Shown: in pieces, positions 25,532-57,083 of the stretch
Position numbering within the stretch: position 1 is the stretch's first letter
How the letters are laid out: every line of letters starts with the position of its first letter
IMG/VR virus record: IMGVR_UViG_3300037501_000255
Reading direction: 5' to 3' (one strand)
Source of the DNA: a virus
Taxonomy: Duplodnaviria; Caudoviricetes
DNA: 64,000 nucleotides
The notes under the pieces: model-generated
Told to the model about the DNA's origin: nothing
Database searches by the model: none
Seen by the model: only the letters and a program-made list of their open reading frames with translations
Position numbers and translations under genes: made by a program

Positions 25532-26542
25532 CTATAGGATTTTGTCTAACTGTTCTTGCTGTTCTTGCGTTAGTGATTCTGGAAATTCAATATTCATCAT
25601 CACTATATGGCTGCCTGTAGCAGATGCGCCTTTGATGCCCTTATCTTTTAGGGCGAATTTTTGACCCGGCCTTGTGCATGGCGGCACCTTCATAGTCACT
25701 TCGCCATACAATGTCTCGACATTTATATCGCAGCCGAGCAGCGCAGATTTTAAACTAATATTTGCTGTACTAAGTATATTTAGCCCCTCCTGCTGCATGG
25801 AGGGATGTTGCTCCACATGCACGGCTATGAAAAGATCTCCTGCTTTACTGCGGGCTCCTGCGCGACCACCCATTCCAGCCAAACGGAGCGTGGTGCCATT
25901 CTGAATGCCAGCAGGGATGCGGACATCGTACTTTTTGGGCACCTGCATGCGCCCCTTGCCTGCGCATTTCGCGCAGGAGGTAGAGAAGCTATGCCCCCGT
26001 CCGGCGCACTTTGTACACGTAGTATTGAATACAATATTGAGGTTGCCTCTGTTGCCGCGAGACATTACACCTGTGCCTTTGCAATCCGTGCATGTCACCT
26101 TACTCTCTGGCGTTCCACCGCTGCCCCCACAATCGCCGCACGATTCTGGGGCGAGGAACTCAACGTGCTTTACGCCACCAAGGCACGCCTCTTTGAATGG
26201 TAGGGTGATGCTAATATTGTAATTCTCAGGCCTGCCGGCACCACGGCCGAAACCAGAGAACCCCTCTTCACCAAAGATATTTCTAAAGATATCGCTATTG
26301 AAAAGATCATTGATGAAGGACGGGCCTGCCTCGCCAGATTGCGCCTGTGGCGCCTGCATATCTGGATTGGTAATGGCTTGATAGGCGGCAGAGATAGTTT
26401 TAAACTTTTCTTCTGCTTCTTGGTTTCCGGAATTTCTGTCGGGGTGATGCTGGAATGCCAGCGCTCGATACGCTTTCTTCACCTCCTCCTCTGAGGCCCC
26501 CGGTTGAAGACCAAGTGCTGAATAGGCTTCTTGTAGGTTCAT
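25532..26542 (-). CDS. dnaJ: DnaJ chaperone (type I, zinc-finger)
   Basis: J-domain with HHPDRN, G/F-rich linker, four CxxCxGxG repeats, GDLFI. Confidence 0.95.
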
Positions 26543-27059
26543 TTCCACTCACCAAACTATATGCTAATGCTACTGCGATTGCATCTGTCTGATCATTATT
26601 CTTCTCAAACGTATATCCGTGAAGAGAGAATAGATCTACTATGAAATCATATGTCAACTTCTTGCTGTCCGACCCGTCACCTCGACGCCCGCGCTTCTTC
26701 TTGGATGGCAGAAGATTGATTCCCGCTCGCCCCCCCAGTATCTTGCGGACCTCCGAGGGCATTATGATAAATGGATCTTTGCGCGTAGTCTCGTAACATA
26801 TTTTGTATGCCACACCATGATACAGGGCTAATACTTTGAAAGTTTTCCTATTTGAACCTTGCCAGCAATCCTCTATCGCTATGATGTCCGGACGATACTT
26901 AGCTATAATTGCTTTGACAGCCACCTCAAAAACGAGCAGCCGTTCGGCGTGAGATTTTTGCTTCAAGCGCAGAGCTTCATTATAGGCAATCTTCCCATCA
27001 CTGTAAACGCACACCCCGGTCGAGGCAGATGATATATCTAATGCTAAGACTGTAGTCAT
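26400..27059 (-). CDS. ruvC: RuvC-like Holliday junction resolvase
   Basis: [32 protein letters not shown]; the C-terminus reads through into dnaJ (see findings). Confidence 0.8.
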
Positions 27060-27084
27060 AGCAGATATATACATCCGCTCGTCG

Positions 27085-27840
27085 TCAATTTACCCCATAT
27101 GCAGTTTTTGATACTTCACTAAGCTGCCTATTGAGGATGATATCATCCAACAATATTGGGCCCAATTCAGATACGGGAATTTGATTTTTATCCTCAAATG
27201 CACGACATGCTTCAATTTTAGCTAGAAGGTCTATGGCGTGCGGATGATTTGGGAATCCCTCATATTCTTTTTTTACGGCCCCCGCGTAAGCATCCCAGGA
27301 ACCAAAAATAAATTCTTTACGCTCACCCATATCCTGAGGATTAAAGCCTGTCAGATTTACATCTTCAAACATAGACAGGTCATACATGTCCTTATCAGCC
27401 CTTCGAATACGCTCTGTCAAATATAATTCTAGAGTGGCAAGACATTTAATTAGATATGTCATACCAAGAGTAATTCCTCGAATACTGAGGTTGTCGCCAA
27501 TATAATACGATATATTGAGGCGCACGCGCCCTTCGCTTGCTGGCCTAACACCCGAGCCGGAGCAGCGATACATGAATATCAAATTATCCATGTCAGATAA
27601 GGTTTTTAAACTAAGGATGTCGGCGGAGAACACTACGGTAGCTTCTATACTGTACCCCAACATATGGTGATCCATATTTAGAATTGCCACACGATCTTTG
27701 TCAAACGAGAAGATAATGCTCTTGTCTGCCACATCTGCCGAAATATTTGAATAGCCAAGTGCCTTAAGAAATTTCGTAGCTAGTAGAAATTCCCATTTAG
27801 TTATTAACTTAGAAAATGTGTCGCGTAAAAAGGATAACAA
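27085..27840 (-). CDS. hypothetical protein
   Basis: TTG start after a gggagg RBS; about 250 aa. Confidence 0.55.
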   Translation of the reverse strand: MLSFLRDTFSKLITKWEFLLATKFLKALGYSNISADVADKSIIFSFDKDRVAILNMDHHMLGYSIEATVVFSADILSLKTLSDMDNLIFMYRCSGSGVRPASEGRVRLNISYYIGDNLSIRGITLGMTYLIKCLATLELYLTERIRRADKDMYDLSMFEDVNLTGFNPQDMGERKEFIFGSWDAYAGAVKKEYEGFPNHPHAIDLLAKIEACRAFEDKNQIPVSELGPILLDDIILNRQLSEVSKTAYGVN

Positions 27841-27850
27841 TTGACCTCCC

Positions 27851-27892
27851 AAAAAATAAAGGTACAGGGGGAACATTTGGCCCCCTGTACCT
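27851..27892 (-). terminator. Rho-independent terminator after the SSB gene
   Basis: Perfect 12-bp stem AGGTACAGGGGG/CCCCCTGTACCT, 9-nt loop, followed on the minus strand by TTATTTTTT. Confidence 0.75.
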
Positions 27893-27906
27893 CGGGTATT
27901 AGCTAA

Positions 27907-28581: not shown

Positions 28582-28610
28582 GTTGTTTTCTCCTATTACA
28601 ATTTTGCTTA

Positions 28611-28700
28611 ATTGCGTTATTGTGTTATTGTGTTATTGTGTTATTGTGTTATTGTGTTATTGTGTTATTGTGTTATTGTGTTATTGTGTTATTGTGTTAT
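28611..28700. repeat. 8-nt tandem repeat (ATTGTGTT)x10 plus one variant ATTGCGTT
   Basis: Perfect copies at 28619-28698, variant at 28611-28618; lies in the leader of the SSB gene. Confidence 0.98.
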
Positions 28701-29240: not shown

Positions 29241-29294
29241 GCCTTCTCCGTTACTGTGCATATGCTGCAAACGTCGTAGGTAGACGCTCAAATA

Positions 29295-29918
29295 TTAACC
29301 GTCAGATCTCCTAAATCTATTGAGATTTGGGCTATCTTTGAGCGCCGCTAACTTTGCCATTCTCTGTGCCGTTAGCGGGTCCGACGCTCCCCCGTCAAGG
29401 TCTACCAGCGAGGTGGGGTCAGGCGGCATTAAACCGGCCATGGCTGCGGCGAACTCCGAAGTCCCGGCGCCGGCCCCCTTGGCGGTCTTAGCGACCGTCA
29501 TATCGCCTTTGGAGAGGCCGAACTCGCGCTCGGCCTCCGCTCGGAGGGCGAAGATCTCTTGGCGTCGCTCCTCTTCTGGCAAGCTCTTAAGGTGAGGGTA
29601 CTCCTCCAACAGCTCGCGCTCAATCTCTTCATCCTGCATTTGGGATCGAGTTTTTGGTTTTACCCTGGCTGATGGCTGAATGGAGGATGCTAACCCCTGC
29701 CCTCTCGGTACAAGGTCATATTTGCCGGCGATTAGAGCAGCTACTTTAACGAGCGTAGCTTCATCAACATCTGCATCCGCCAGCTTTTCCTTGATTGAAG
29801 TAAATTCGGCATTAATTGCTGCGGACATGATCGTCTTGCCGCATGCAGGGCATGAGTTGTCCTGAAGTGCCTTGGTAAAGGACGGCGGTATCGGGGTTTG
29901 ACAGTTATTGCATTTCAT
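29295..29918 (-). CDS. zinc-ribbon hypothetical protein
   Basis: N-terminal CNNC...CPACG. Confidence 0.6.
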   Translation of the reverse strand: MKCNNCQTPIPPSFTKALQDNSCPACGKTIMSAAINAEFTSIKEKLADADVDEATLVKVAALIAGKYDLVPRGQGLASSIQPSARVKPKTRSQMQDEEIERELLEEYPHLKSLPEEERRQEIFALRAEAEREFGLSKGDMTVAKTAKGAGAGTSEFAAAMAGLMPPDPTSLVDLDGGASDPLTAQRMAKLAALKDSPNLNRFRRSDG

Positions 29919-32900
29919 TGTTCACCTGATTTTTATAGTAGGCTTCTAAGTTGATTAACACCAGAGTTTTATTGCCAGCATATTCATTGACTTTAAACAT
30001 GCCACGTATAGGCAGGCCCACGCGGAGTATTTTCTTCATTTTCTCATACTGGTCGGCCCATATTGTAACTTCTACACTTTCGCCGCGCAGATTTTCTATG
30101 GTTAATTTACCCATAGTTTTACCCTTATTCTTACCATCTTTTTTGATAAGAATCTCTTTAATAGATGTTACTATTCCTTCAGTTGGAAAGTTTATATTAT
30201 CTACCATAGCCTGCAGCTGAGCGTATGTCTGACCATATCTGCCCTCAATAAAGAATCCGGGATAGAGAGCCTTGATATCTCCAGAAACATATTCTCCCAG
30301 AGTATTCTTTTCTCCCTCCAGCTTTTCGCGCATAGTGAATTCAACGTGAGCTAATTCATGGCTATTTGGTACAAATGCGCTTAGCTGCTCGGGCGTGAGC
30401 TGATATGATTTCTTAATCTTCTTCTCTACCACAACTCTGGTGCGACTCGATTTACCCTCCAGATCTCCGCTATAATCATCAGATAGCTCCTCATTCTGGA
30501 AATCGCCATCATCAGCGATATCCACCTCAACCTCTTCCTCAACCTCTACGACAATCTCTTCTCCGTGCTTTTTAGCATACGCCTGCAGTTCTTTACGAAT
30601 ATCAAGGAAGTTGTCATGGATATATTTCCTTGACAATCCAAGGCTGTCGAATGCTCCAGCTAGGGCAAGGGCTACGATGACCGACTTGTTTACGACATTT
30701 CCTGGTGTACGATGTAGGAAGTCCTGAAATGAAGCATACGGCTGTCCGGCAATAATTGCCTTGAGCGCCCTCTCGCCCACGCCTTTTATCGCACCAAGGC
30801 CGGTAACAATTGTGCCCTTATCCTTCATAGAATAATATTCTTTGGATAAGTTAATGTCACATGACTGTATATTAATCTTAAATAGCTTGGCATCTTTTTT
30901 GAGAGCGTCGATAATCTCGCTGCGCTCACGCTTATTGCCCCTAGTTTGCGTATTTAGATTTGCGCATATAAATGGGCCAGGAGCATGCGCTTTGTAATAC
31001 GCCGTCTGATAGGAGATCATGCTATACATAATTGCGTGGCTAAGATTGAATCCATATCCGGCGAACGGCAGGACGACCTTATTCCATATTTCCTGAGCCT
31101 CGTCCTTTGATAGTTCAGAGAACGCCATGGAGTCTATTATGAATTTCTTCTCCAGTTCCGCAGCAAGATGAGCTCCTTTCTCCTTGAGCTTAGTAAGCTT
31201 ACGCAGACCGTCTGCTTCGGATAGATCCCATCCGGCTACCAACTGTGCAAGCTTGAGAAGATCCTCTTCATAAACCGGAATGCCGTGAGTGTGCTTAAAT
31301 ACCGGTTCCAAACATGGGTGGATATACTTTACTGGACTGCGTCCAAACCTACGATTTATGAATTCAATTCTATCTTGCTTACGGACAGATGGTCGTCCGA
31401 GAGCGCTGATGGCGGCAATGTCCTCAACTGACTTCGGCAGCATAGCCTTGCAGAGCGGCGTCATACTGCCATTTAACTGAAACATCCCGGTAGTATGCCC
31501 CAGATGCATTAGCTTGTAGGCCTTTGCATCGCCATCCTGCAAACTTTCAGGCTCTGGTAGGGTCATGCCGATTGACTTTGCTAGAGATATAGTCTCATCA
31601 ATAACATCCAGGGTATCTAACCCAAGAAAGTCCATCTTGACCAGACCAATCTCCTCGCACTGATCTTTATCATACTGAACAGAGATGGTTCCATCGCTAT
31701 CTCTGCGCAGCGGAGCGCACTCAGGCAGCGGCGTATCGGAAATCACTATGCCGGCAGCATGGGTAGCGAACCCGCGCGGAACGCCGATTAACTCATTAGC
31801 GTACTCTAGTATAACCGGGTACTCCTGCACGAACTTGCGTAACTTCTCCGATGCCTCCATAGCCTTAGCCATAGTGTCGATTTTAATTCGCTTGTCGCCC
31901 TCCATTATTAGGTCTGGAATACTGGCTGTAACGTCGTTTGCAATTTTGAAGGCAGTACTCTTATCTCCTCCAATAACCAATGACCGAGCCACGTCCTTGA
32001 TGACTAGCTTTGGTGTTAATCGGAGAATGTTAGAAATGAATGCAACCTTGTCTTCTCCATACTTGTCTTTGCAATATTGAATAACACGCTCTCTGCCGCT
32101 AGGAGCAAAGTCGCAATCGATATCTGGAAGTGACTTCTTCTCCTTATTCTGGAAACGCTCGAAAAGCAATCCATATTTAATAGGATCTGCCATATGAATA
32201 CCGAGCAGGAATGCTACAAGGGAGCCCCCCACGCTTCCGCGGCCGGGACCGACAGTAATCCCGTTATTTTTGGCCCATTGTATGTAATCGGCGACGATTA
32301 GCATATACGAGCTGAAGTTGCGCATCTCAAGAATATCAAGCTCTTTCTTTACGCGCTCCAGGTATTCCTGCTTCTTTTCTTTAGAAAAGGCTTCTGTGTA
32401 TTTGTCAAATGCCTTTTTAACACGGAAGCGTAGATAGGCGGCGTCTTTCTTGAGCGCAGCGATTGCAGGCTTATCTTGCGACCATGCGCTGAACTCAGCT
32501 GCATCCCCCTCGTCTTTCCAGGGATACGCCGGCAGTCTGTGACCCTTCGGAGCCATGTAGTCCGGATATTCACAACTATCGGCTATTTTCACAGTATTAT
32601 CCACCATTGTGCCCGCAGTGGTACTATCGAATTTTTTCGCAAAGTAGCTGACTAACTGATCTCGGCCCTTCAAGTAGAATTCCGGGCACGGCTTAATCGC
32701 CCCGTACTTGGTACCGCCGCATTGATAACATTCCTTCTTGGAATCCGCAGGATACTCCCCGGTTCCAGCGCAAATTAGGCATGGCTGATATGTAGCGTAA
32801 CGGTGACGCGTTGGGTCCTCAAGGGATTTCTTGGAACCGATTGCCAATACCATATCGTGATATTTCTCATGCTTACTCGTAAGATAGTGCGAGTCGCATG

Positions 32901-33531
32901 TGGCAATCATTTGTATTTTTAGCTCATCTGCCAAGAATTTAAGTTGTTCATTTAGGAATGATTGATTAAACTCTCCGCGCTGCAACTCATGCGGCTGTAG
33001 TTCAATATAAAACTTGTCGCCAAAAAGATCTCTGAAGATTGACGCCAAATCCTTTGCTTTGCGAATATTTTTTTCAAATATGGCGGAGGCGAATGGGGAA
33101 CCGCCGCATGCAGAGTTTACAAATAATCCTTCCCTGTGTTTCTTTAGGATACTAAAGTCTACGCGCGGAAATTGACGCCCCATCACTGTCACGGAATTAC
33201 GAAATCCAGCAGCATTTATCTGCAATAGGTTGCGATAACCTTCCTCATTTTTGGCTAATAGCACAAGATGCCGTCTCTTAGACTTGGGATCATTTAGATC
33301 TTCACAGTAATATATTTCACTGCCTGGAATGAACTTAATCTGCCGCCCCTGCTCTTTATACTTCTTGTATTCCTTATATCCCTCGTGTATACCAGCCAGG
33401 ACACCGTGATCTGTAATTGCTATACCGGGCTGCCCTAACTCTGCCACTCTCTTAAAAAGATCTGGTATGCAAATGATTGCATCCATGTGAGAGTGATATG
33501 TGTGCGAGTGTAGGTTTACGAAATTGTCCAT
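29905..33531 (-). CDS. dnaE: DNA polymerase III alpha subunit
   Basis: PHP motifs LHSH, TDHG, DSHY; GPGRGSVGGSL; FERF; PDIDCD; HAAG; KMDFLGL; YGFNLSHA; C-terminal OB fold. Confidence 0.97.
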   Translation of the reverse strand: MDNFVNLHSHTYHSHMDAIICIPDLFKRVAELGQPGIAITDHGVLAGIHEGYKEYKKYKEQGRQIKFIPGSEIYYCEDLNDPKSKRRHLVLLAKNEEGYRNLLQINAAGFRNSVTVMGRQFPRVDFSILKKHREGLFVNSACGGSPFASAIFEKNIRKAKDLASIFRDLFGDKFYIELQPHELQRGEFNQSFLNEQLKFLADELKIQMIATCDSHYLTSKHEKYHDMVLAIGSKKSLEDPTRHRYATYQPCLICAGTGEYPADSKKECYQCGGTKYGAIKPCPEFYLKGRDQLVSYFAKKFDSTTAGTMVDNTVKIADSCEYPDYMAPKGHRLPAYPWKDEGDAAEFSAWSQDKPAIAALKKDAAYLRFRVKKAFDKYTEAFSKEKKQEYLERVKKELDILEMRNFSSYMLIVADYIQWAKNNGITVGPGRGSVGGSLVAFLLGIHMADPIKYGLLFERFQNKEKKSLPDIDCDFAPSGRERVIQYCKDKYGEDKVAFISNILRLTPKLVIKDVARSLVIGGDKSTAFKIANDVTASIPDLIMEGDKRIKIDTMAKAMEASEKLRKFVQEYPVILEYANELIGVPRGFATHAAGIVISDTPLPECAPLRRDSDGTISVQYDKDQCEEIGLVKMDFLGLDTLDVIDETISLAKSIGMTLPEPESLQDGDAKAYKLMHLGHTTGMFQLNGSMTPLCKAMLPKSVEDIAAISALGRPSVRKQDRIEFINRRFGRSPVKYIHPCLEPVFKHTHGIPVYEEDLLKLAQLVAGWDLSEADGLRKLTKLKEKGAHLAAELEKKFIIDSMAFSELSKDEAQEIWNKVVLPFAGYGFNLSHAIMYSMISYQTAYYKAHAPGPFICANLNTQTRGNKRERSEIIDALKKDAKLFKINIQSCDINLSKEYYSMKDKGTIVTGLGAIKGVGERALKAIIAGQPYASFQDFLHRTPGNVVNKSVIVALALAGAFDSLGLSRKYIHDNFLDIRKELQAYAKKHGEEIVVEVEEEVEVDIADDGDFQNEELSDDYSGDLEGKSSRTRVVVEKKIKKSYQLTPEQLSAFVPNSHELAHVEFTMREKLEGEKNTLGEYVSGDIKALYPGFFIEGRYGQTYAQLQAMVDNINFPTEGIVTSIKEILIKKDGKNKGKTMGKLTIENLRGESVEVTIWADQYEKMKKILRVGLPIRGMFKVNEYAGNKTLVLINLEAYYKNQVNNEMQ

Positions 33532-34148: not shown

Positions 34149-35360
34149 CTACTTAACCTTTGCTTGTGAAATGAGAAAATCTATCGCTCTGTTTCTCTCA
34201 TGGAAAGACATCAAAAGTTCATACTGGCCGGAATTTCTTAGATGTGTCAAAACCTCGTCCGGCGTTCTTCCAACCTTCTGCGCCTCGGCCTCTACTACGC
34301 CGAACGCCTCGTCTGCGGACATGTGAATATTTTCGCGCTCACGATAAATGGCATCAAGGAATATATTAGACAGTATATTTCTACGCGCCTGCTGTTTGAG
34401 TTGCTGTACGAGCTGCTCCGAGTCTTTAGGAAGCGCTTTTAAACCAATGCGCCTGCAGATCACCTCAGTCTCGGCATCTATCCAGCGGTCCGGAATCTCC
34501 AGAGGGTTAGCCTCGATTAGCTGTGTTAGAACTTCATTATAAAGCTTGGCCTTTAGCGGTACGGAATGATCATTGGTTTTCTTAGAGATTAAATCTCTCT
34601 TCATATCCTCCAACGAAGAGAATAGAGCTGATTTAGCAAATTCGTCATCTAGTGCTGGTAATGCTCGTGCGAATACGGCGGATAAGCGAACCCGAATAAC
34701 CCTACCATCCTTAAGCGCTGCGTCAAACTCATCACCTGCTTTCTTATCAAGAAAGACAGTATTGTCAACAAACGTGTCCGGTGTATCTGATAATGCTACT
34801 GAGGCGTGACTATTGCTGCCATCGAGGAATTCAACGGAAACCTGATCGCTCGCCTCAGCAGGCCTTTCTACAAAATCAAGCTGCGCCATAGAAGCGCGTA
34901 TCTTCTCAAGATCAGCCGCCACCAGACTGTCTAGTGTTGGCAAAGCCTCTGAAATGTGCAGTTCGGGCGGGATCACCACCTGTAACTCGGGCTCAAAATC
35001 AGCAATTACTGCGAACTCAAAGGAGCCATCGAGATTAAACTCTCCGACATATTTTTTTCTACGCGAAGCCCTATGAGCCTCAATGAGACTTGGCGAGCCG
35101 ACTATTTTAAGTTGTTTCTCGCGAATTGATCCCGAGACCTCTTCATGAACAATTCTCGCGGAGCACTCTGCTAAAATAATATCCTTGAATTGATTACGAA
35201 TTACTGCCGGCGGGGCAGTGCCCTTCCTAAAACCCCTTGCCTCAACACGCGGGGCGATTTCTTTAATGAAGGAGTTGATTGATTCGTCTACTTGAGATTG
35301 TGTAACCGAGAAAAACAGTTGCTTCTCTATGCCACTCTTATCTTCTATCCTTACTAACAT
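34149..35360 (-). CDS. tig: trigger factor
   Basis: Ribosome-binding signature GFRKGTAP; LDDEFAK...SLEDMK; C-domain IPDRWIDAE; middle FKBP domain shortened. Confidence 0.85.
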   Translation of the reverse strand: MLVRIEDKSGIEKQLFFSVTQSQVDESINSFIKEIAPRVEARGFRKGTAPPAVIRNQFKDIILAECSARIVHEEVSGSIREKQLKIVGSPSLIEAHRASRRKKYVGEFNLDGSFEFAVIADFEPELQVVIPPELHISEALPTLDSLVAADLEKIRASMAQLDFVERPAEASDQVSVEFLDGSNSHASVALSDTPDTFVDNTVFLDKKAGDEFDAALKDGRVIRVRLSAVFARALPALDDEFAKSALFSSLEDMKRDLISKKTNDHSVPLKAKLYNEVLTQLIEANPLEIPDRWIDAETEVICRRIGLKALPKDSEQLVQQLKQQARRNILSNIFLDAIYRERENIHMSADEAFGVVEAEAQKVGRTPDEVLTHLRNSGQYELLMSFHERNRAIDFLISQAKVK

Positions 35361-35367: not shown

Positions 35368-38300
35368 CTATCTCCTATATTGGTTTGGATCAGTAAGTAG
35401 CTGTGACTGCTCCTGCTTAATTGCTGACTCCCAACGTTCGGCCTGTTCATCAAACATTGTATCTATATCCTTAACCTCCTCTCTCTTGGCCCGCTCAGAG
35501 GGCGGTCGTGTATTGCGTACTCGATATTTATCCAATTCGAGAAGAAGATTACTGAAGTCATCGCCTGCCGATAGGCGACGATTTAGGTCCATCAGAAGCA
35601 ATTGCAGATGCTGTGGACTGACTGCGTCACCTAGATCCTTTACATTTACAAGGCTATCGAGCGCCATAGACACCCTGCGTACAGTATCGGCCTTATCCTT
35701 GTACTGAGGTGACTGGGACATTCGACTAATAAAGTCCCGTACCTTATCTCGCGATACGGTCAGCGACTCTTTGATATAATCAAACTCTTCTTCTGCACCG
35801 GCCGCCTCGCGCTCTGCCATGTCTTTTGCTTTATTGATAGCCTTAAGTAGTTGCGAGCGATACACTTTTGATGTGGAAAGTAGGTCGCGTAGTTGATTAA
35901 GTAATACGGGATTTCTCCCAGCTGCAGACATCTCTTTTGAGAGGGATGCTTGTGCCTGAACTACAGCCTGCAGGTACTTCATTAGTTCTTCGGCCTTGCT
36001 ATTGAGGCGCGCAACGCCATCTTGCTGTTGGGGCACAAGCCTGTCTGCCAGCTTGCCGCCAGAGAAAATAGTTTTCGATAGGGATGTAATGAGCGCCTCA
36101 CCCTCCTCCTGTTTTGGGGCGGGCAATGCAGGGTCTTTGCCAGTATTCTGCTCTCTACGTATCGTGCTTCTTAGGGCTGGGGCAACTTTGCCCAAAATCA
36201 TCTCTACAGTTGTTCCGATACTTTTATCTGTAAGATACGATGGTGGTAGTTTCTGTAGTTCCTTCTCCACTTTCTGCAGAGTATCTGTTGGCACACCGCT
36301 TTTAGCCAAGTCATCCAAAATGCTCTTGATAATCGGATTTTCATCTGACTTATCGGTGATCTCGCTGCTACGTTCAGCATCAAGCTTCACAGAGGAGAAA
36401 TCAACCTCGACTTGTGGCGGAATGTAGGTTGTAGATACGAATGGACTCTGTTTGAATGGCACGTCGCCGCCCTTCGTATAGGGCACTATATCCTTTTCAT
36501 AGGCGGGAGAGATGGATAGCACTTCCTTCCTGCGGTCAAGCATGGCCATGCGTATAGCGCCTACAGGATTTCCTAACAGGTTGTTCCCTAGACGCCTGAC
36601 GGTATTTACTAGCGAGCTGTATACAGACGGCTCTACTATTTCGCCTTTACCCTCGGCCAATCGCTGGGCATTTAGCTTGTCTATTTGCTCACGAGAGAGT
36701 CTTTCCCCCGGCTGTATATTTAATCGAGTTTTACGCACAATGCCCGACGCGTGCGATGTCGTGTCTGGGACGGGATCGGCAAAGGCTTTTGTAATCTGAG
36801 CTAATTCCTCCCAGGACCTTGGTCTGGGGTTTGCTGGATCCGACCAATTTTCGTCAGTTACCGAAGCGTCAGACTTATTCTTCTCAAAAAACTCACGTAC
36901 GGCTGATAGAGCTGGGGCGGCGCGCGCGGCGCGAAATCCATAATCAGCACCTATAATCATTGCTCCAAGAGAATTATTTAGTAATCTAGAGGCATCCTCG
37001 CCCTTTCCCTGTTTATCTGCAAAAGCGCGGTATAGCTGACTGAGCTTGCCGTATATGGTGTTTGACGCCAGCACTGCACCGCCACGACCGCCCTTTAGAG
37101 ACATGAAGTCGGTATTTATGAATCTCTCAATCTCCTCTCTGCGCTCAGAAGTTTTAGCGGAGAGCTTCTTAGATAACACTTCCGTTACATATTCTTCAAT
37201 TATACCTGGAAGCACCTTGTTGCATACGTAGACCGATACGTGCTCCCATGTCACATCCCTCGTGACCCCCTGCTTTTGTAATTCATAATATTTTGACATG
37301 ATATCTGCCAGTATTTTATTTATTAGGTCGCCAGTGCGGCGACCTGCATCCTGCCCCGCCCCACTGTATGTCAGGGCTATATCGGCCTGCTTAGCTTTTA
37401 TACCGGTGTCATCGATACCCAGATATTTCAATAGTGGTTCAAGCTTGGATGCGGCAACCCCGGAGCCAAGGCTCTCGTCCCGCAACTTAGAGATGGCGTC
37501 AGTATTGATTACGCTGCTTTTATAGTCCTCTTCATTGGCAGCATAGCGCTCAGCGAATGCTTGCGACGACAGTGCTGCAGATAGGTGGGGGAGGAACCCG
37601 TCCGTAAGGGTGCCAAGCTTATCGTTTATGCTTTTTATTTCTTTTTCTGAGGTAAGGGGCTGTGATGCTGCATCTACAAGTTTAATTGCCGACGGCGCAT
37701 TGTACACGTAGCGCATTGTGAGCGGGAGGAGGGGCATAGCATATAGTTTGAATATATTTGAAAGAATTAATTGAAGCGAAGTTTTGTCAGCAAACAGAGG
37801 GCCGTACTTGTTGAGTATCTGCGTGCGCGCTGCCTCAAAAGCATACATCATCTCTTCATTGAATGCCCGAATATTGTCCAGGTCCTTGGTCTTAAACGAT
37901 GTACCGGCTATGTCCCCACCGGGCGTGCCAGAACCATATGTGCGCTTCGCTTCATTCGAGGCCTCTAAGAATTGATTGCTTTCTGAAGTTATTGCTTTAT
38001 TTACCTCGCCCTTGGCGGCTACTATGAATTCGTCCAAAATGTCGGTCGCTACGGCAGCGTTTGGCTTACTCATCAGTTTTGCAATGGCTTGGGTCAACTG
38101 TGCCGAGGACTGTGCCTGCATATGTGCGCGTGCACTCTCCATCGACTCCATAGCTCCATCAATAACTTCGAAAGCCACATCTGCATATGTTCTATTACTT
38201 AGAAATTTCGTACGAATATCGCCCATGTTAAGATTGGTCGACGCCACGCTATACTTCTCACCATTCCACATGGTCATATTCAAATCTAGGCTAGCTAATT

Positions 38301-41974: not shown

Positions 41975-41981
41975 GCCTACC

Positions 41982-46671: not shown

Positions 46672-47243
46672 ACTTTTCTACGCTCCAGCTCCATCATTAT
46701 TTGAAGGGAGAAGTTTCTGGCTTGCTCGCCGTCTTCATCGGTTAATTTTGCGAACCGCTCGTCTATTCTCTTAAATATGCTTTCCGCCCAGGCGCACTCT
46801 TCCTTGAATGCCAGTGTGTCATTTAGCGAAGCTAGATACTCCCTAATCGCCACACTCATTTGAAAATTAATCTCATGTATATTTATCTTAGGCCTTGTTG
46901 CTGCAGCGTCTGATAGGTCTATGGATATGTTCTTTGATTTTTTATACCTCATGGCGACTACATCGCCAGGAGAGCCCCTAATCATACCAATAAAATCAAA
47001 AATATCCCCTCGCGCCGAGCAGCCGTAACAGAAAAATGTCTTATCTGTGTCTGATAAATGTAACGATGGAGTTCGCTCTTGTCCGTTTTTATGGAACGGG
47101 CAGGTGCACTTATGAGTCCAAGAGGCTGAGCTAACCGACTCGACCCTATTTGAATATTTGTTTGCTACAGCTTCGAACGACAGAGATTTAGCTAGCTGCT
47201 TACGCAGTGCCTTGCTCTCATCTGTCGTCAGCCATGCAATCAT
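46668..47243 (-). CDS. standalone CHC2 zinc-finger (primase zinc-binding domain) protein
   Basis: CPFHKNGQERTPSL...FFCYGCSARGDIFDF; no TOPRIM domain follows. Confidence 0.85.
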   Translation of the reverse strand: MIAWLTTDESKALRKQLAKSLSFEAVANKYSNRVESVSSASWTHKCTCPFHKNGQERTPSLHLSDTDKTFFCYGCSARGDIFDFIGMIRGSPGDVVAMRYKKSKNISIDLSDAAATRPKINIHEINFQMSVAIREYLASLNDTLAFKEECAWAESIFKRIDERFAKLTDEDGEQARNFSLQIMMELERRKV

Positions 47244-49255: not shown

Positions 49256-49747
49256 CTATTGGGATGCCAGAAAATCTTCAAAAGCATACGCTAGGCGCTC
49301 ATCCAGATCCCTATCTGAGATACCGCTGCGGTAGTTGAGGAGGTGAGCTATTTCATGCGCAAGAACGCCATCCCGTTTCCGGATAGAGTCCATGACAACG
49401 TATACTCTACGATCGCCCGGATAATACCTTCCTAGCACATCCTTATTTCTTGTTAGCCCAAATGGCAACGAACCATCATTCATCACAGTATGCGTTACTA
49501 TAGCAACATCTATTCTGTCTAGGACGGCAGGCCTGTGCAAGTTTAAGAAGCGCGCATGATTCTCCGGTACTGCATTCACGGTGCGTTGTACAAATTGCAA
49601 ATCGCCTTTCGTCAGAGGCTGATATGCACAAATGCGTATATCGGTCTGAGTGACAAGCCTATATTTAAAAGTGCAGTCGATCTCTACCTGCGCGGTAGCG
49701 GTTTGTGCAAAAAGCAGTGCGAAAAGGATAGCTATGAACCTTATCAT
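49256..49747 (-). CDS. exported zincin-like metalloprotease
   Basis: Signal-peptide-like MIRFIAILFALLFAQTATA; GRYYPG...VLAHEIAHL. Confidence 0.6.
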   Translation of the reverse strand: MIRFIAILFALLFAQTATAQVEIDCTFKYRLVTQTDIRICAYQPLTKGDLQFVQRTVNAVPENHARFLNLHRPAVLDRIDVAIVTHTVMNDGSLPFGLTRNKDVLGRYYPGDRRVYVVMDSIRKRDGVLAHEIAHLLNYRSGISDRDLDERLAYAFEDFLASQ

Positions 49748-50331
49748 TTCCTTCTTCTCTTCCTAATTTTAGTCAGCGGTGTTGTTGAAGATAGTATCTC
49801 GTCGACTATTCCGTACTCTAGCGCCTCCTGGGCTGTAAGGTACTTATCTGATTTAAGATCCATCTCGAGCTGCTTTACTGGTTTGCCTGTATATTTTGAA
49901 TATAGCTTGTACATTGTATCCTGTAGAGCTTTCGTGTGCTTTACTTCGATGGATAAGTCCGATACCGTTCCGTACACTTCGGTATTGACCTGGTGCATCA
50001 TAATCGATGTATTTTCCGCTATTGAGCGCCGATCTCCTGCCGCAAGCAGGAGCACCCCGGCGCTCATCACCTTACCAATGCCTATTGTATGCAGGGGGCA
50101 TTTTACCAATCTCATTGCATCGTACATGGCATTCATCTCATACATATCTCCGCCGTAAGTGGAGATATATATAGTGATGTGTTCTGTGGGGCTTTGAGCC
50201 GACAGCAGTACTAGATATTTGATGAATTGCTGAGCTTTACGCTCATCAATCTCTCCTGTGAGCATTATTATTCGCTGCTCCTCTATACATGTTACTTCTA
50301 TATCATCCGTGTATTCCTCTGTATCTGCCAT
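49744..50331 (-). CDS. clpP: ATP-dependent Clp protease proteolytic subunit
   Basis: LTGEID, ISTYGG, MSAG (Ser), MMHQ (His), DKYLTAQEALEYGIVD. Confidence 0.92.
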   Translation of the reverse strand: MADTEEYTDDIEVTCIEEQRIIMLTGEIDERKAQQFIKYLVLLSAQSPTEHITIYISTYGGDMYEMNAMYDAMRLVKCPLHTIGIGKVMSAGVLLLAAGDRRSIAENTSIMMHQVNTEVYGTVSDLSIEVKHTKALQDTMYKLYSKYTGKPVKQLEMDLKSDKYLTAQEALEYGIVDEILSSTTPLTKIRKRRRK

Positions 50332-50386
50332 GTCAATCTCCCATGTCTGCGGCTACCATGGGGCGAATCTTACTGTGCCCTCATTG

Positions 50387-50411
50387 AAAAGCAGGCAGGA
50401 TTCCTGCCTGC
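50387..50411 (-). terminator. terminator-like hairpin after bS21
   Basis: Minus strand GCAGGCAGG-AAT-CCTGCCTGC-TTTT. Confidence 0.6.
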
Positions 50412-50416
50412 CGCTA

Positions 50417-50821
50417 TCATTGTCCTTGCGACTCACCCTGAGGTGCGCGGCGAGGGGTATATGGACGGAATTTCACTTTCTTAGAATCGAAGTCCATCAT
50501 CATCTCTAGCTTTGCTTGGCGCTTGCGGGCATTTTTAATCGCCTTCATATGCCTCTCGCGGCGCTTCTGGCTCTTGCTCTTAAAATGCTCTCTTTTCTTT
50601 ATCTCAGACAAAACACCGGAGGCTTCGACTACACGCTTGAAGCGCCGGATAAGACGCTCGTTGTCCTCACCAGGTTCCGCCTTGACAGTCCTAAAAGTGA
50701 AGGAATTCAGCAAATCTTGTGAATTATCTACCCGTGGATCAAATTTGCCTAGTGGGCGATGCTGTGGGGGCCTGCGATTCTGATATGGGCGGTTAGACTC
50801 CCAATTATTAAACTTTCTCAT
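50417..50821 (-). CDS. rpsU: ribosomal protein bS21 homologue with N- and C-terminal extensions
   Basis: TVKAEPGEDNERLIRRFKRVVEASGVLSEIKKREHFKSKSQKRR. Confidence 0.8.
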   Translation of the reverse strand: MRKFNNWESNRPYQNRRPPQHRPLGKFDPRVDNSQDLLNSFTFRTVKAEPGEDNERLIRRFKRVVEASGVLSEIKKREHFKSKSQKRRERHMKAIKNARKRQAKLEMMMDFDSKKVKFRPYTPRRAPQGESQGQ

Positions 50822-51691: not shown

Positions 51692-51712
51692 ATTACCCTC
51701 TTTTGAGGCATC

Positions 51713-52750: not shown

Positions 52751-52759
52751 GTTCTTTTC

Positions 52760-53104
52760 TCAGCCTTGCTGGGCATCTACAACCTTACCCGTGGCATCAA
52801 TGGTAAGTGAAATTCTACCCGGCTTGTAATCTTGCGTTACAGTGGCGCCGATCGGCGCTACACGGAACTCCGCTATTTTCTTGTCATTCACTAACTTTGT
52901 TAGCAACTCAACTGCATCATCTTTCATTTTATCCATTAAACCATCCAGCGTATCTCTCATTGAGAAATCAGGTGTGGCAACAACATGCTTACTAGGATCA
53001 AATTGTATTTCTTTCATATCGCTTTTAGCCTCATCTTTAATTATCTTGGAGTCCCAATCTGCGGGATTTTGTGAATCTATTCTTCTGAATACTTTACCTG
53101 ACAT
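52760..53104 (-). CDS. protein with C-terminal serine-protease inhibitor domain (I78/potato inhibitor I-like)
   Basis: FRVAPIGATVTQDYKPGRISLTIDATGKVVDAQQG; start set at ATG 53104 (RBS gaggag). Confidence 0.6.
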   Translation of the reverse strand: MSGKVFRRIDSQNPADWDSKIIKDEAKSDMKEIQFDPSKHVVATPDFSMRDTLDGLMDKMKDDAVELLTKLVNDKKIAEFRVAPIGATVTQDYKPGRISLTIDATGKVVDAQQG

Positions 53105-53156
53105 GGAATTCTCCTCAGAAAGTAGGGGTGGGGGCGTGGGGATAGACGACGGCTTT

Positions 53157-54263
53157 TTAAGTCGCGCCCACAACCCCTTTAATGATTTCAGCAGCATCTA
53201 TAATCTCCTGCCATGTTGTTTTTGGGCTAATCGAAACCCTTATTGAGCCAGAGAGACGTGGCGACAATTCCCCATACATAGCTGCCAGAGTATAGCTGTG
53301 CGTCGACATACCTGATTCACAGGCGCTCATGCCAGATACCATCACGCCAGCCACTGATAGCTGTTCTACAAATAATTGTACATCCTTAACTTTTGGAAAA
53401 TATAGATTTGTAGTATTGGGCAGTCTCTTGGCTCCAGCCCCATTTACCAGAGCAACATCTCCCAATATTCGCTCAAGCTCTGCAATTTGCAATTGCATTT
53501 GCGCCGAAATGTGCGGAGATAAATTACTCATCTCTGTCACTGCCAATCCAAGACTGTATATAGCTTCGGTATTTATCGTGCCAGGTCGCAAACCCCACTG
53601 CTGCGCCCCTCCCAACATTAGCGGATAAAGTTGAGGAAAGATATTGTCCTTGAAGGCCAGTGCGCCAACACCCTTCATGGCGTGCATTTTATGACCAGAA
53701 ATAACAATTGTACTAGCGCAATTCCGCTGTATTTCAGATAGGCTCCCGCCTTTTGCATAGCATTGCGATGCGTCAATGTGAAGCTTTATTCCTTTCGCCC
53801 GGCAAAGCTCGGCAATGGAACAGTCCGGATCAAGATGAATTCCGGTTTCATTATTGGCATACATACAGGCCAGTACAATATTGGGGGCGTGCTTGCATCC
53901 GGATATTTTTTTAGCCAGCGTATCGTAGCATAGGTAACCTTCCGGAGTCACCGGCAGGATCTCATCCGCGTATTTAAGGACTGACTTGTGCTCGACTGCT
54001 GAAGACCAGATGGTGTGCCCTGACTTTCTGTATGAGGACAGCGCCATGGCATTTGCTTCTGTAGCGCCGCTCGTAAACAATACATTGTTTGTTCTGGTAC
54101 CCAGAAGTGTCGCAACAATCTCGCGGCTCCCATCAATAATCTTCTTAGAAGCGGCGCCTGCCGCATGTTGCGAGTCGGCATTTCCTAGAAATATTTCATC
54201 GGATAGCTGCTCGTATACATGCGGCAGGACATATGTGGCCGAATTATGATCTAAGTATATCAT
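53157..54263 (-). CDS. iscS: cysteine desulfurase (IscS/NifS family)
   Basis: YLDHNSAT, TSGATEAN, EHKSV, NNETG, HIDASQ, SGHK (PLP Lys), RPGT, SAC (catalytic Cys). Confidence 0.92.
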   Translation of the reverse strand: MIYLDHNSATYVLPHVYEQLSDEIFLGNADSQHAAGAASKKIIDGSREIVATLLGTRTNNVLFTSGATEANAMALSSYRKSGHTIWSSAVEHKSVLKYADEILPVTPEGYLCYDTLAKKISGCKHAPNIVLACMYANNETGIHLDPDCSIAELCRAKGIKLHIDASQCYAKGGSLSEIQRNCASTIVISGHKMHAMKGVGALAFKDNIFPQLYPLMLGGAQQWGLRPGTINTEAIYSLGLAVTEMSNLSPHISAQMQLQIAELERILGDVALVNGAGAKRLPNTTNLYFPKVKDVQLFVEQLSVAGVMVSGMSACESGMSTHSYTLAAMYGELSPRLSGSIRVSISPKTTWQEIIDAAEIIKGVVGAT

Positions 54264-55897
54264 CCCATCATCATGCCAGGATGGGCGGTAGATGATTTAT
54301 TCTCTTCACTCTCGTCTATGGCTACCACCGCCTCTGTAGTAAGAATTAGCGAACTCACACTGGCTGCATTTTGAAGCGCAACCCTTGTTACCTGAGCCGG
54401 GTCGATAATCCCCGCCTGCAGCATATCTCTGTATTCATGAGTAGCTGCATCGTATCCCCAAGTGCCAGTCAATTCAGATCTGACCTTGTTTAGGACTACC
54501 TCCTGCGACTTGCCCGCATTGGCAACAATCTGCATCAATGGAGCAGAACACGCCTTGAGTATGATCTTAACTCCAATATCCTCTTCTGGGTCGCCTGTAG
54601 TGAAATTTTCGAGTGTTGCTGCTGCACGCACTAGAGCTACGCCTCCGCCCGGCACTATGCCCTCTTGTATCGCCGCCTTTGTAGCGGCAAGCGCATCCTC
54701 AAATCTATCCTTTCTTTCTTTCATTTCGATATCTGTAGCTGCGCCAACCTCGATAACGGCAATGCCGCCAATCAGCTTGGCCAAACGCTTGTTTAGCACA
54801 TCGCGTGCGTGAAAGTCGGTTATGCGAGAGAGTTCTTGGCGGATTTGAGCTGCGCGTTGCTGAATAGCGTCCTCGGCACCGCTCTTTCCCACCACCACGG
54901 TCTTCTCCCTTGTAATAATAATGCGCTCAGCCGTTCCTAGATCGGAGAGCTGCGTTTCGATTAGGCGAGATTCAATACCGAGCTCTTTGATTTGAGCACC
55001 AGTGAGAATCGCCAAATCCTCCATCATTTCCTTTTTTGCGTCTCCGAAACCAGGGGCTTTTACTGCAGCGCAGACAAGAGAGTTGCGCAGAGAATTGACT
55101 ACCATAGTACCGAGAACTTCACCCTCAATAGAGTCTGCTATCACGACCAGCGGTACCTTGTGCTTGCTGCAGTGCTGGAATAGTGGAAGCATCTCCTCCA
55201 TATCGGCTGCGCTGGTAAGCTTGCTATTTACCAGCCAGATTAACGGCTTTTCAAAAACGACCCTTTGGCGCTCCTTATCATTACAGAAGTGTGGTGAAAG
55301 GAATCCGCGGTCAAATTCAAAACCTTCGGCAGCACGAACTGTAGACTCAAAACCCTTGCCTTCCTCCAGAGTGATTACTCCATCCTTACCCACAACTTCC
55401 ATAGCCGAGGCTATCATCTTGCCGATCGAGGTGTCGCCGTTGGCGGAAATGGTTGCTACTTGCTCCACCTCTTTAATATCCTCAACTTGCTTACTTAGTT
55501 TTTTAATCTCAGCCACAACCGCCTCTGCGGCCTTGTCAATGCCGCGCTTGATTGGCATTGGGTCGTGACGAGCCACTATGAGGCGCAGACCTTCAGCCAC
55601 TATAGCGTCAGCCAAAACCGTTGCTGTGGTAGTCCCGTCACCGGCTAAATCCGCAGTACGCGACGCCACCTCTTTCACCATTTGGGCGCCCATATTGGCA
55701 AATGGATCTTTAACTACAATCTCTCTAGCCACCGACACGCCATCCTTGGTGATATGTGGAGGTAATCCACGGCGCTGCAGGACTACGTTTCTGCCACGTG
55801 GGCCCAGCGTACAGGCCACTGCCTTTGCTAAGGTCCTTACTCCGCTAGCTATTTTATCTCTGGAATTTTGACCAAATTCAATTATTTTAGAATCCAT
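54260..55897 (-). CDS. groEL: group I chaperonin GroEL
   Basis: LGPRGRNV, TKDGVSVA, AGDGTTTATVLA, KAPGFGD, GGGVAL, Met/Gly tail. Confidence 0.97.
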   Translation of the reverse strand: MDSKIIEFGQNSRDKIASGVRTLAKAVACTLGPRGRNVVLQRRGLPPHITKDGVSVAREIVVKDPFANMGAQMVKEVASRTADLAGDGTTTATVLADAIVAEGLRLIVARHDPMPIKRGIDKAAEAVVAEIKKLSKQVEDIKEVEQVATISANGDTSIGKMIASAMEVVGKDGVITLEEGKGFESTVRAAEGFEFDRGFLSPHFCNDKERQRVVFEKPLIWLVNSKLTSAADMEEMLPLFQHCSKHKVPLVVIADSIEGEVLGTMVVNSLRNSLVCAAVKAPGFGDAKKEMMEDLAILTGAQIKELGIESRLIETQLSDLGTAERIIITREKTVVVGKSGAEDAIQQRAAQIRQELSRITDFHARDVLNKRLAKLIGGIAVIEVGAATDIEMKERKDRFEDALAATKAAIQEGIVPGGGVALVRAAATLENFTTGDPEEDIGVKIILKACSAPLMQIVANAGKSQEVVLNKVRSELTGTWGYDAATHEYRDMLQAGIIDPAQVTRVALQNAASVSSLILTTEAVVAIDESEENKSSTAHPGMMMG

Positions 55898-55913
55898 ACT
55901 GCTTTTCTCCTAA

Positions 55914-56345
55914 TTATATGTCGTTAAGTTTCTTGCCTAATTTTGACAGGTATTTGTTATAAAGCCCCTCGTATATGTGCTGATACGGCGACGCTAGTAT
56001 TTGTACATCGTCTTCCGCAGTAAGCGTAGATCCAACCCGCATACGAATTTTTGCACTATCCTCTTCACGCGAAAGAAGCATTTCAATAGATGAAAGTCCG
56101 TGATGGCGTTGCGCGTATGCGGCTAAACCATCTAATGTATCTTGGGAAAACTCCAGAATGGCAGGAGCATTGTCTTCATCCGAAAGAAGGACGATGGTGG
56201 CATAGTGAATCTTTTCTGCGCGATCCGGCGCAGAAACTAGACCGTCTTTGCTAGCTGGAATTGCTATAGGAGGAAATGGGAATTTAACCCCATGAACCCG
56301 CTCAGATGTCAGTAGTTGATTTAGGATCCGAATCTTCATTCTCAT
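55914..56345 (-). CDS. hypothetical protein
   Basis: About 140 aa upstream of groEL; start uncertain; not GroES-like. Confidence 0.5.
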   Translation of the reverse strand: MRMKIRILNQLLTSERVHGVKFPFPPIAIPASKDGLVSAPDRAEKIHYATIVLLSDEDNAPAILEFSQDTLDGLAAYAQRHHGLSSIEMLLSREEDSAKIRMRVGSTLTAEDDVQILASPYQHIYEGLYNKYLSKLGKKLNDI

Positions 56346-56568
56346 TTACCTGCGGTTCTGCTGATGCTGTGGGGAAGTCTTGCACATCGTCATATATACC
56401 CACCTCGCGCGTCGAACCTTTGAGATGCGGCGGTGCTTCGACTGATTTGAGTATATTAAATACAGATGAGAATGTGATATTGTTTCTGTGTTCGGCGGGG
56501 ACTGATTTCTTAGCCTTTTTTAGATGCCGCCTTACGCGATCTCGTAACATTTTTCTATTTCCAGACAT
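56302..56568 (-). CDS. small hypothetical protein
   Basis: ATG at 56568 overlapping the def stop, RBS gagga; basic N-terminus. Confidence 0.5.
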   Translation of the reverse strand: MSGNRKMLRDRVRRHLKKAKKSVPAEHRNNITFSSVFNILKSVEAPPHLKGSTREVGIYDDVQDFPTASAEPQVNENEDSDPKSTTDI

Positions 56569-57083
56569 TAGAAGATCCTCATATGTTTGCGAAGCTCTGC
56601 CTTGCAGCACTTGGCAAAAGTGAGATTTGAGCTGCACAGGCATAGCCCGTCATCTTTTATGTTGGACAGCTGATTTCTAAACATACTCTGACCAATTGTA
56701 TGCTGATGCTCGTGCTGCGCGACGATGGCGGGAAGGCCGGTAAGCCTTATACCTTGAGGATTCAAGTCGTCTACTATAACTGCAGTATTGTATCTTAGGG
56801 TGCGTATGGACTGACCGGGATACGACAGACACCCCTCTGCAGTAAAGATAAGCGGCTCAGACAGGTGGGTGATGCGCGCATTTATGAAGTTATAACTGTG
56901 CTTTGCAGAAATGCGTATTATGAATGCTTGCTTTACTACACCAATCTGGCATGCTGCCAGACCAATTCCCTGTACCTCCGACATTCGAAGCTCATTTTCG
57001 AGCCTAGTCAGAAGTTCAGCGGCTTCCCCCGGCAAGACCGGAGTGGACGGAATTAGGAGAGTATCCTCATCGGTAACGATCAT
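56568..57083 (-). CDS. def: peptide deformylase with C-terminal SEC-C-like motif
   Basis: GIGLAACQIG, EGCLS, QHEHQH; tail CLCSSNLTFAKCC. Confidence 0.88.
   Translation of the reverse strand: MIVTDEDTLLIPSTPVLPGEAAELLTRLENELRMSEVQGIGLAACQIGVVKQAFIIRISAKHSYNFINARITHLSEPLIFTAEGCLSYPGQSIRTLRYNTAVIVDDLNPQGIRLTGLPAIVAQHEHQHTIGQSMFRNQLSNIKDDGLCLCSSNLTFAKCCKAELRKHMRIF

Follow-up and report, generated by a model that had tools for sequence, protein, structure and literature searches.

Ribosomal proteins, initiation factors and peptide deformylases (PDFs) encoded by phages are known, and to our knowledge nobody has shown their action on the ribosome. Huge phages have been described as redirecting translation (Al-Shayeb 2020, PMC7162821) and as controlling the proteostasis network (Chen 2022, PMC9723584). 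Our study deals with a stretch of 64,000 nucleotides (nt) of the IMG/VR virus record IMGVR_UViG_3300037501_000255 (hereafter the window), in which the genes for ribosomal protein bS21, PDF, trigger factor (TF), DnaJ, GroEL and ClpP had been read by a first-pass annotation as a near-complete nascent-chain pipeline. All these six genes are phage-encoded and were recovered at or inside the positions assigned to them, with open frames and intact motifs. In our reading, to which we give a rough probability of 55%, the locus carries a translation and folding accessory set of a clade of 200-430-kb phages, which supplements and probably biases host ribosomes and could not run as a pipeline by itself. 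Its lasting part consists of bS21, initiation factor IF-1, a PDF with a SecA-type (SEC-C) tail, TF and DnaJ, and the six-gene picture is corrected to these members; GroEL, ClpP and an inhibitor-like gene were added recently, in the subclade of the window. The alterations of TF and PDF are conserved features and not decay of genes. This reading is built on gene presence, motifs, protein conservation, synteny and co-occurrence, and from these we infer that TF, PDF and bS21 dock on the ribosome, when they are expressed and how the phage benefits.

The closest described system is SR-VP_PHAGE_40_16, present with automatic annotation in the supplementary GenBank data of Al-Shayeb 2020, which has the same module with an extended bS21 of 135 amino acids, a PDF ending CYCLSNRKYKHCH and likewise DnaG-SbcD-SbcC followed by TF, DnaJ and IF-1. 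N-extended phage bS21 was reported earlier in the same work, whose main text holds no discussion of TF and no mention of the PDF tail (PMC7162821). The phages of Chen 2022 (PMC9723584) are large, freshwater and bS21-bearing, as is the case here. Their bS21 gene is found within 2-6 genes of the prohead protease and capsid genes and is reported to be on the reverse strand, whereas in the window the distance from bS21 to the terminase is about 39 kb and all genes share one strand. No TF or deformylase was found in the supplementary tables of PMC9723584 that were searched, and no discussion of a phage TF or of a PDF-SEC-C fusion was found in the literature searched. The concept and the module are already published; what the present analysis adds is that TF is linked to the tailed PDF, that the peptidyl-prolyl isomerase (PPIase) domain has decayed in the subclade and that GroEL and ClpP are add-ons. 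The clade thereby presents a compact, conserved set of small soluble proteins which in bacteria meet at two defined ribosome sites, with two members apparently undescribed in the literature searched, namely a phage TF lineage and a large family of PDFs fused to a SecA-type metal-binding domain. The features of the lasting unit inside the window are as follows.

50417-50821, minus strand: extended bS21, 134 amino acids (Pfam Ribosomal_S21, 43.1 bits against a 27-bit cut-off, residues 46-98)
50687-50821, minus strand: N-terminal extension of bS21 (45 amino acids)
50528-50686, minus strand: S21 core
50420-50527, minus strand: C-terminal extension of bS21 (about 36 amino acids)
56568-57083, minus strand: PDF, 171 amino acids from the ATG at 57083 (Pep_deformylase, E about 1e-18)
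56604-56642, minus strand: SEC-C/SecA-type motif CLCSSNLTFAKCC of the PDF (CxCx8CC with conserved Ser and aromatic residue)
34149-35360, minus strand: TF, 403 amino acids from ATG (Pfam Trigger_N E 1.6e-16, Trigger_C E 1.2e-14)
35211-35234, minus strand: TF signature GFRKGTAP (GFRxGxxP; coordinates and translation checked)
34662-34883, minus strand: reduced head domain of TF (residues about 160-233), shorter by 21 residues than FKBP heads in bacteria
25532-26548, minus strand: type I DnaJ, 338 amino acids (Pfam DnaJ, DnaJ_CXXCXGXG and DnaJ_C), between RuvC and RecA

Viral PDFs are otherwise reported to be without a ribosome-binding C-terminus (PMC5591237). The PDF of the window contains the motifs GIGLAACQ, EGCLS and HEHQH, and residues E83, G84, C85, L86, S87, H124, E125 and H128 are invariant in 28 relatives. 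The closest solved structures are the phage PDFs of Vp16 (5mtc, E 1.6e-12) and S-SSM7 (3uwa, E 1.8e-9), which have the same catalytic motifs, a core ending just past motif III and no alpha-3 helix. In comparison to these, the window PDF has about 40 further residues forming the CxCx8CC knuckle; the alignments to the solved phage PDFs stop at query residue 131 and the Cys knuckle lies beyond. The alpha-3 helix by which type 1B PDFs are anchored to the ribosome (uL22) was not seen either, as alignments to solved type 1B enzymes stop at query residue 146 or earlier. The SEC-C tail claimed for this PDF by the first-pass annotation is upheld by conservation: its four cysteines (C148, C150, C159 and C160) and F156 are invariant in 7 relatives, one of them at 38-41% identity, while in an alignment of 28 sequences C148, C150 and C159 are invariant and S152 is nearly so. 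With the Pfam SEC-C profile (PF02810) the window PDF reaches 15.8 bits, below the 20.4-bit cut-off, and relative P0039 reaches 27.2 bits; precomputed SEC-C matches are present in L042 and L043, with a weak one in L044.

A report on the metal-binding domain of SecA (bioRxiv 10.1101/613315) describes binding to ribosomes and SecB, a CXCX8C[HC] motif accompanied by a conserved Ser and aromatic residue and, in many bacteria, fusions of the domain to methionine aminopeptidases. The motif with its Ser and aromatic residue is common to the window PDF and the SEC-C proteins (SecA, YecA, YchJ and some methionine aminopeptidases), whereas the fusion partner here is a PDF, and the window copy falls short of the Pfam cut-off. 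The fusion is widespread among the nearest sequences. A PDF profile search over 1.84 billion cluster representatives was used to collect the 150 best matches, which together with the seed relatives gave 155 sequences, and a C-terminal CxC...C[CH] tail was found in 128 of them, mostly as CPCGSGKK[YF]KKCC. All of the ten PDF clusters sampled were metagenome-only, and in GenBank phage PDFs the match did not extend past query residue 145 and stopped short of the tail. Our most specific mechanistic proposal is that the SecA-type domain takes the place of the ribosome anchor which the viral PDF core lacks, and the fusion provides a direct hypothesis for how anchor-less viral PDFs reach nascent chains.

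The TF of the window shares its GFRxGxxP-bearing N domain, C-terminal arms and general fold with the bacterial TFs (E. coli 1w26, T. maritima 3gty), whereas it is phage-encoded, at most 25% identical to any bacterial TF found and has a head 21 residues shorter in which the FKBP signature is gone. Upon alignment of the phage TF with bacterial TFs, G43, F44, R45 and G47 were found invariant and P50 nearly so. The retained GFRKGTAP is the motif docking bacterial TF on uL23, and 50S binding and chaperoning by the phage TF are what we infer from it at the sequence level. The head shortening appears as alignment gaps of 9 and 12 residues against bacterial TFs. The description of this protein as PPIase-less stood in one respect, since FKBP_C had no match in the window TF or in nine other members of the subclade (n=10), and needs correction in another, since a small beta-rich head of about 75 residues remains between the N and C domains in the AlphaFold2 model (predicted local distance difference test score, pLDDT, 89). 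A Foldseek search with the TF model retrieved the TF structures 3gty and 1w26 at E about 1e-19 with template-modelling (TM) scores of 0.51-0.54, and the isolated PPIase domain of E. coli TF (1l1p) ranked only 40th with a TM score of 0.45. FKBP_C is still matched by 6 of the 7 outgroup phage TFs and absent in the subclade; therefore, the decay of the head is specific to the subclade of the window. A natural domain-lacking variant of TF is described from plants as the plastid Tig2 (PMC11731035). The clade further offers a natural structure-function panel, with TF carrying an FKBP head against TF with a vestigial head, and tailed against untailed PDF.

The open frame of TF extends upstream of its ATG to a TTG at 35453, and a TAGGAGA Shine-Dalgarno motif is present upstream of the gene. 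The other TF matches from the GenBank phage collection were unannotated human faecal contigs of 4-30 kb with 21-27% identity (one partial match at 28%). A donor was also sought from TF and given up, the sequences being too divergent. Two outgroup TFs (L053:19017-20264 and L056:18657-19898) read GSRPGKA and GNRPGKA in place of GFRxGxxP; the Phe replaced in both of them is the residue of the E. coli TF mutant structure F44L (1p9y).

The extended form of bS21 proposed by the first-pass annotation is real, and both extensions are conserved in 13 relatives of 127-150 amino acids, with F4, D28, S40 and F41 invariant. The protein aligns with the bS21 chains of solved ribosomes. Its ATG overlaps the stop codon of the upstream NUDIX gene as ATGA, and the long form is supported because of this overlap. 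The IF-1 gene lies in the window's own genome, 27 kb past the window (G000:124297-124491). DnaJ has HPD at residue 35, four CxxCxGxG repeats and the C-terminal domain, and is 61% identical in the sister phage IMGVR_UViG_3300049893_002454 (G001).

In this sister phage the whole 31-kb block is colinear and the six genes have 60-85% protein identity, and the same gene order is repeated in a 249-kb ENA contig (ERZ27279563 k141_2205342). Against the sister contig, the nonsynonymous rate (dN) was 0.10-0.39 and the synonymous rate (dS) was saturated, which is usable only as dN well below dS; at the sequence level the proteins of the set are conserved. The order bS21, tailed PDF, DnaG Zn-ribbon-SbcD-SbcC, PD-(D/E)XK nuclease and TF is kept in distant contigs in which the TFs are about 17-24% identical, and the order bS21, PDF, DnaG-SbcD-SbcC and TF was also found in the published SR-VP_PHAGE_40_16. 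Pattern scans of IMG/VR with the single PDF, bS21 and TF proteins gave one sister contig only and a TF alignment added one more; the clade was reached by PDF alignment, which yielded 80 IMG/VR PDF loci. A TF gene was present within 10 kb of 10 of the 18 tailed PDF genes and of 1 of the 67 untailed ones (Fisher p = 1e-7).

Twelve TF-bearing IMG/VR records were compared, including G006 (428 kb, terminal repeats, 100% complete) and G007 (406 kb, 95% complete), with 10 phage records having an untailed PDF as controls (tailed PDF being zero there by selection). The distribution of the genes is given below.

TF: 12/12 clade records, 0/10 controls
Tailed PDF: 11/12 clade records, 0/10 controls (by selection)
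DnaJ (J domain): 11/12 clade records, 2/10 controls
bS21: 9/12 clade records, 2/10 controls
IF-1: 3/12 clade records, both near-complete genomes among them
ClpP: 5/12 clade records, neither near-complete genome; 5/10 controls
GroEL: 1/12 clade records, 0/10 controls
HSP70: 0/12 clade records
Strong AAA_2 match: 1/12 clade records (G006)

The clade records in which bS21 is missing are solely fragments estimated as 9-12% complete. The ribosome-acting factors (bS21, IF-1, TF and PDF) travel together through a deep clade of 200-430-kb phages. The joint six-gene set did not survive the same comparison, GroEL and ClpP being the members that drop out, both from the near-complete genomes. Within the clade GroEL is confined to the immediate subclade of the window, and ClpP is patchy. 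Two further records reached through GroEL (G002 and G004) were discarded as relatives, being unrelated phages without the rest of the set.

The same counts also bear on an alternative explanation, namely that the genes are auxiliary and unlinked, each retained because it is useful by itself (PDF would add deformylation capacity, GroEL would fold a few virion proteins and ClpP would degrade host or defence proteins), with their joint presence due to shared ancestry and a large genome. We regard this as a possibility to be taken seriously, though we do not hold it to be the probable one. It is favoured by the scatter of GroEL and ClpP just described, by the presence of ClpP in 5 and DnaJ in 2 of the 10 unrelated control phages, by an unrelated 203-kb phage which has GroEL and a J domain and none of the rest, by the interleaving of the genes with unrelated functions and by the fact that one clade supplies all of the co-occurrence. 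On the other hand, TF is confined to the clade among the phage records examined (12 records against none of the 10 controls) and is tightly linked to the tailed form of PDF, and TF, PDF and bS21 hold their relative positions across relatives whose TFs have diverged to about 17-24% identity. Moreover, bacterial PDF and TF are both found at the exit tunnel, and the type of tail seen here is the one reported as ribosome-binding.

Certain observations weigh against the reading of the locus as a translation and folding accessory set. AlphaFold2 models the whole PDF including the tail with high scores (pLDDT 97, predicted TM score 0.92) and packs the tail tightly on the PDF core, so that the tail could be structural and not docking; the metal-binding domain of SecA sits on a flexible linker, whereas the linker of the PDF tail is short. 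The two outgroup TFs with GSRPG and GNRPG indicate that uL23 docking may not be universal, and one clade member (G018) pairs TF with an untailed PDF of 150 amino acids. The set is interleaved with replication, recombination, nucleotide and iron-sulphur (Fe-S) genes and does not form one operon, and the position of DnaJ between RuvC and RecA equally suits a replication role. Further, the counts come from one clade and are not independent, and the Fisher p-values overstate functional coupling; because the records form one clade, these values are a clade signature and not a repeated independent association.

The location of DnaJ leads to another explanation, in which DnaJ and possibly TF serve the surrounding replication and recombination module, for example by recruiting host DnaK to remodel the replisome or a recombinase. 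A precedent is known from lambda replication, where host DnaK is recruited to remodel replication complexes. DnaJ stands near DnaE as well as between RuvC and RecA, TF stands between DnaE and a sigma-like factor with a conserved 1300-aa protein, and this placement is conserved in relatives. TF, however, retains the ribosome-docking signature and the full N- and C-terminal chaperone architecture, and mixed functions are packed on one strand in these phages, so that position is weak evidence; we find this explanation decidedly improbable.

If the locus is an accessory set for translation and folding as proposed, initiation on the 30S subunit would be the point of action of the extended bS21 and IF-1, the kept GFRxGxxP would let TF dock at uL23, and the complete type I DnaJ would have to pass its clients to host DnaK. 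The most likely benefit would be that initiation, deformylation and first-contact chaperoning do not become bottlenecks when the failing host has to make hundreds of phage proteins. In the subclade of the window, GroEL, ClpP and the inhibitor-like protein would have been gained while the PPIase head of TF decayed. A stronger version may be speculated, in which TF and the SecA-tailed PDF are a co-adapted pair taking over the exit port of the host ribosome (uL23 and SecA-type docking) as the phage's own processing and holding station for its chains; we consider it rather unlikely. The predicted direct complex of TF and PDF scored 0.00, which counts neither way on binding. If such a takeover were true, it might displace host SecA and SecB from ribosomes and divert secretion capacity to cytosolic virion proteins, and the ribosome would be marked by the phage at both ends, the 30S subunit carrying the extended bS21 and IF-1.

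The phage origin of the DNA was examined with the window's record of 142,142 bp (CheckV, 38% complete), to which the statements on 142 kb refer. The proteins of the window are also found on a 367,953-bp contig, which gives a genome of about 368 kb for this freshwater giant phage. All real genes of the window are on the minus strand and coding is single-stranded across the 142 kb; GC content is even (0.43-0.50) except for the final 2 kb of the window (0.37), and no terminal repeats were found in the 142,142-bp record. The structural and replication hallmarks are listed here.

8644-11556, minus strand: large terminase interrupted by an intein, a phage hallmark
6726-8630, minus strand: candidate portal (weak Mu-portal match, below cut-off)
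29905-33531, minus strand: DnaE-type polymerase

Terminase and portal are about 80-84% identical in the sister phage over the matched stretches, the product of the candidate portal being about 81% identical to its counterpart over 561 matched residues. That the stretch might be host chromosome or a chimeric assembly, with the 'cellular' genes not being phage genes, had been named as a condition that would overturn the earlier claim. The chaperone and translation families are indeed typical of cellular genomes, and the sole GenBank 'phage' record with an annotated tig gene proved to be bacterial DNA: CAKLQH020000005.1, 'Acinetobacter phage MD-2021a' (L206, 220 kb), was rejected as a TF phage as it carries tig-clpP-clpX, leuA, metX and a TonB receptor and looks like a bacterial chromosome. 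Against this, the gene order of the window is repeated in at least 4 independent assemblies of different sources with terminase, portal and DnaE flanking, the 428-kb relative with direct terminal repeats holds TF, tailed PDF, bS21, DnaJ and IF-1, no bacterial protein retrieved exceeds 25% identity to the phage TFs or 54% to GroEL, and composition and coding strand are uniform. A host or chimeric origin is hence effectively refuted and hardly conceivable to us.

A sequencing-run look-up with a 7.3-kb block and with the TF gene alone matched no RNA run and one DNA run (a freshwater metagenome, probably the source sample), and nothing was found in Rfam and tRNA scans of the window.

The genes regarded as additions in the subclade are the following.

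54260-55897, minus strand: GroEL-type chaperonin, 545 amino acids (Cpn60_TCP1, E 2e-65)
49744-50331, minus strand: ClpP, 195 amino acids (Pfam CLP_protease, E 1e-46)
52760-53197, minus strand: candidate protease inhibitor of potato-inhibitor-I or I78 type, start probably at Met residue 32

GroEL has the nucleotide-site motif GDGTTT and is 85% identical in the sister phage. It is at most 54% identical to any bacterial GroEL retrieved, and the other IMG/VR phage GroELs are at 38-58%. ClpP aligns with solved ClpPs at E about 1e-31 with the Ser/His/Asp triad matched. The partners of these proteins were looked for in the 142-kb record, where Cpn10/GroES (PF00166) and AAA_2 unfoldases (ClpX, ClpA or ClpC) had no match and HSP70 (DnaK) was not found; HSP70 was also missing from all the 12 clade records, two near-complete genomes included. 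The description as a near-complete pipeline therefore fails for want of Cpn10, HSP70 and an AAA_2 unfoldase. ClpP would require an unfoldase partner of the host, and as the 142 kb yielded no GroES, DnaK or ClpX, the set as a whole depends on the host for DnaK and probably for a ClpX-type unfoldase. The gp146 protein of Pseudomonas phage EL is a phage-encoded GroEL chaperonin without a recognisable phage co-chaperonin. The window GroEL is likewise without a recognisable one in the 142 kb.

The gene upstream of GroEL (55914-56345) was considered as GroES and rejected on present evidence, as it has no Pfam match and its Atlas neighbours are viral hypothetical proteins. ClpP was considered as a prohead protease and this was rejected as well, since its homology to ClpP is close and neither of the two near-complete clade genomes has a ClpP gene. 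No donor of these genes could be named: the best bacterial matches of GroEL (50-54%) are spread over Deltaproteobacteria/Myxococcota, Rhodocyclaceae and others, so that neither a donor nor a host emerges, and TF, as stated above, is too divergent. The protease inhibitor of the first-pass annotation is a lead only. Its Pfam potato_inhibit match of 19.1 bits is below the 24.5-bit cut-off, and its low-confidence Atlas model (pLDDT 0.51) gives TM scores of 0.64/0.71 with a potato_inhibit cluster and 0.60/0.64 with an I78 cluster. The reverse of the window's arrangement was seen in G006, which has an 808-aa ClpA/ClpB-type AAA+ protein (G006:C1:374885-375391) and no ClpP.

The neighbours of PDF, GroEL and bS21 are described next, with the features concerned.

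57080-57403, minus strand: IscA-type iron/Fe-S carrier (Fe-S_biosyn, E 1.8e-12)
57459-57857, minus strand: second IscA-type iron/Fe-S carrier, IscA2 (Fe-S_biosyn, E 3.6e-8)
53157-54263, minus strand: NifS/IscS-like class-V aminotransferase (Aminotran_5, E 7.5e-37), start overlapping the GroEL stop
50394-50412, minus strand: terminator-like hairpin and T-run directly after the bS21 stop (consensus scan)

From IscA2 (57857) to bS21 (50417) the genes are tightly packed, with ATGA overlaps at IscA/PDF, GroEL/NifS (54260-54263) and NUDIX/bS21, and PDF, GroEL and bS21 may share one transcript. The hairpin after bS21 may end this IscA2-to-bS21 transcription unit; terminator-like matches across the region are no more numerous than expected by chance, and the position of the hairpin is what is suggestive. 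ClpP, TF and DnaJ are placed further downstream, among replication and recombination genes. Shine-Dalgarno-like motifs precede 35 of the 66 genes, TF, GroEL, bS21 and ClpP included, against a background of 17%.

Both IscA genes are directly upstream of PDF, an arrangement repeated in the ENA relative, and together with the NifS/IscS-like cysteine desulfurase they flank PDF and GroEL. PDF is natively an Fe(II) enzyme. SecA-type metal-binding domains have been reported to prefer iron. Because Fe-S genes flank an enzyme of this kind with a tail of this type, the phage may supply metal to its own deformylase through the NifS/IscA neighbours.

The Fe-S genes are followed, at 59111-63791, by dTDP-sugar (RmlC/RmlD-like), epimerase/dehydratase and glycosyltransferase (GT2, GT10) genes in one block, which fits the sugar chemistry of other bS21 phages (PMC9723584). 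Directly upstream of TF, at 35368-40115, a 1300-aa protein without Pfam match and a sigma-70-like factor (regions 2 and 4) are encoded, and this pair is kept in the window, the sister phage, the ENA relative, L038 and L039. Next to it, at 40085-42022, lies a PD-(D/E)XK (Cas4/Dna2-like) nuclease of 645 amino acids with a LAGLIDADG insertion, whose orthologues have 256 amino acids without the insertion in L039, 541 in L038 and 651 in the ENA relative; the DnaE of the window is without the intein which L021 and L038 carry. Because the nuclease insertion and the DnaE intein vary among relatives in this manner, the pattern suggests mobile inteins moving among the replication genes of the clade. The terminase intein also contains a LAGLIDADG homing-endonuclease domain, and in a tblastn search against the sister phage only the C-terminal residues 545-970 were matched.

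DnaG is apparently split, with a CHC2 zinc ribbon of 191 amino acids (46668-47243) and a catalytic core with Toprim (22617-23381) encoded 23 kb apart, and the stand-alone zinc-ribbon gene is kept beside SbcD across the clade. Adjoining the portal gene, at 5126-6427, is a 433-aa fusion of a eukaryotic-type topoisomerase IB core and an M23 peptidase, 71% conserved in the sister phage and possibly carried in the virion.

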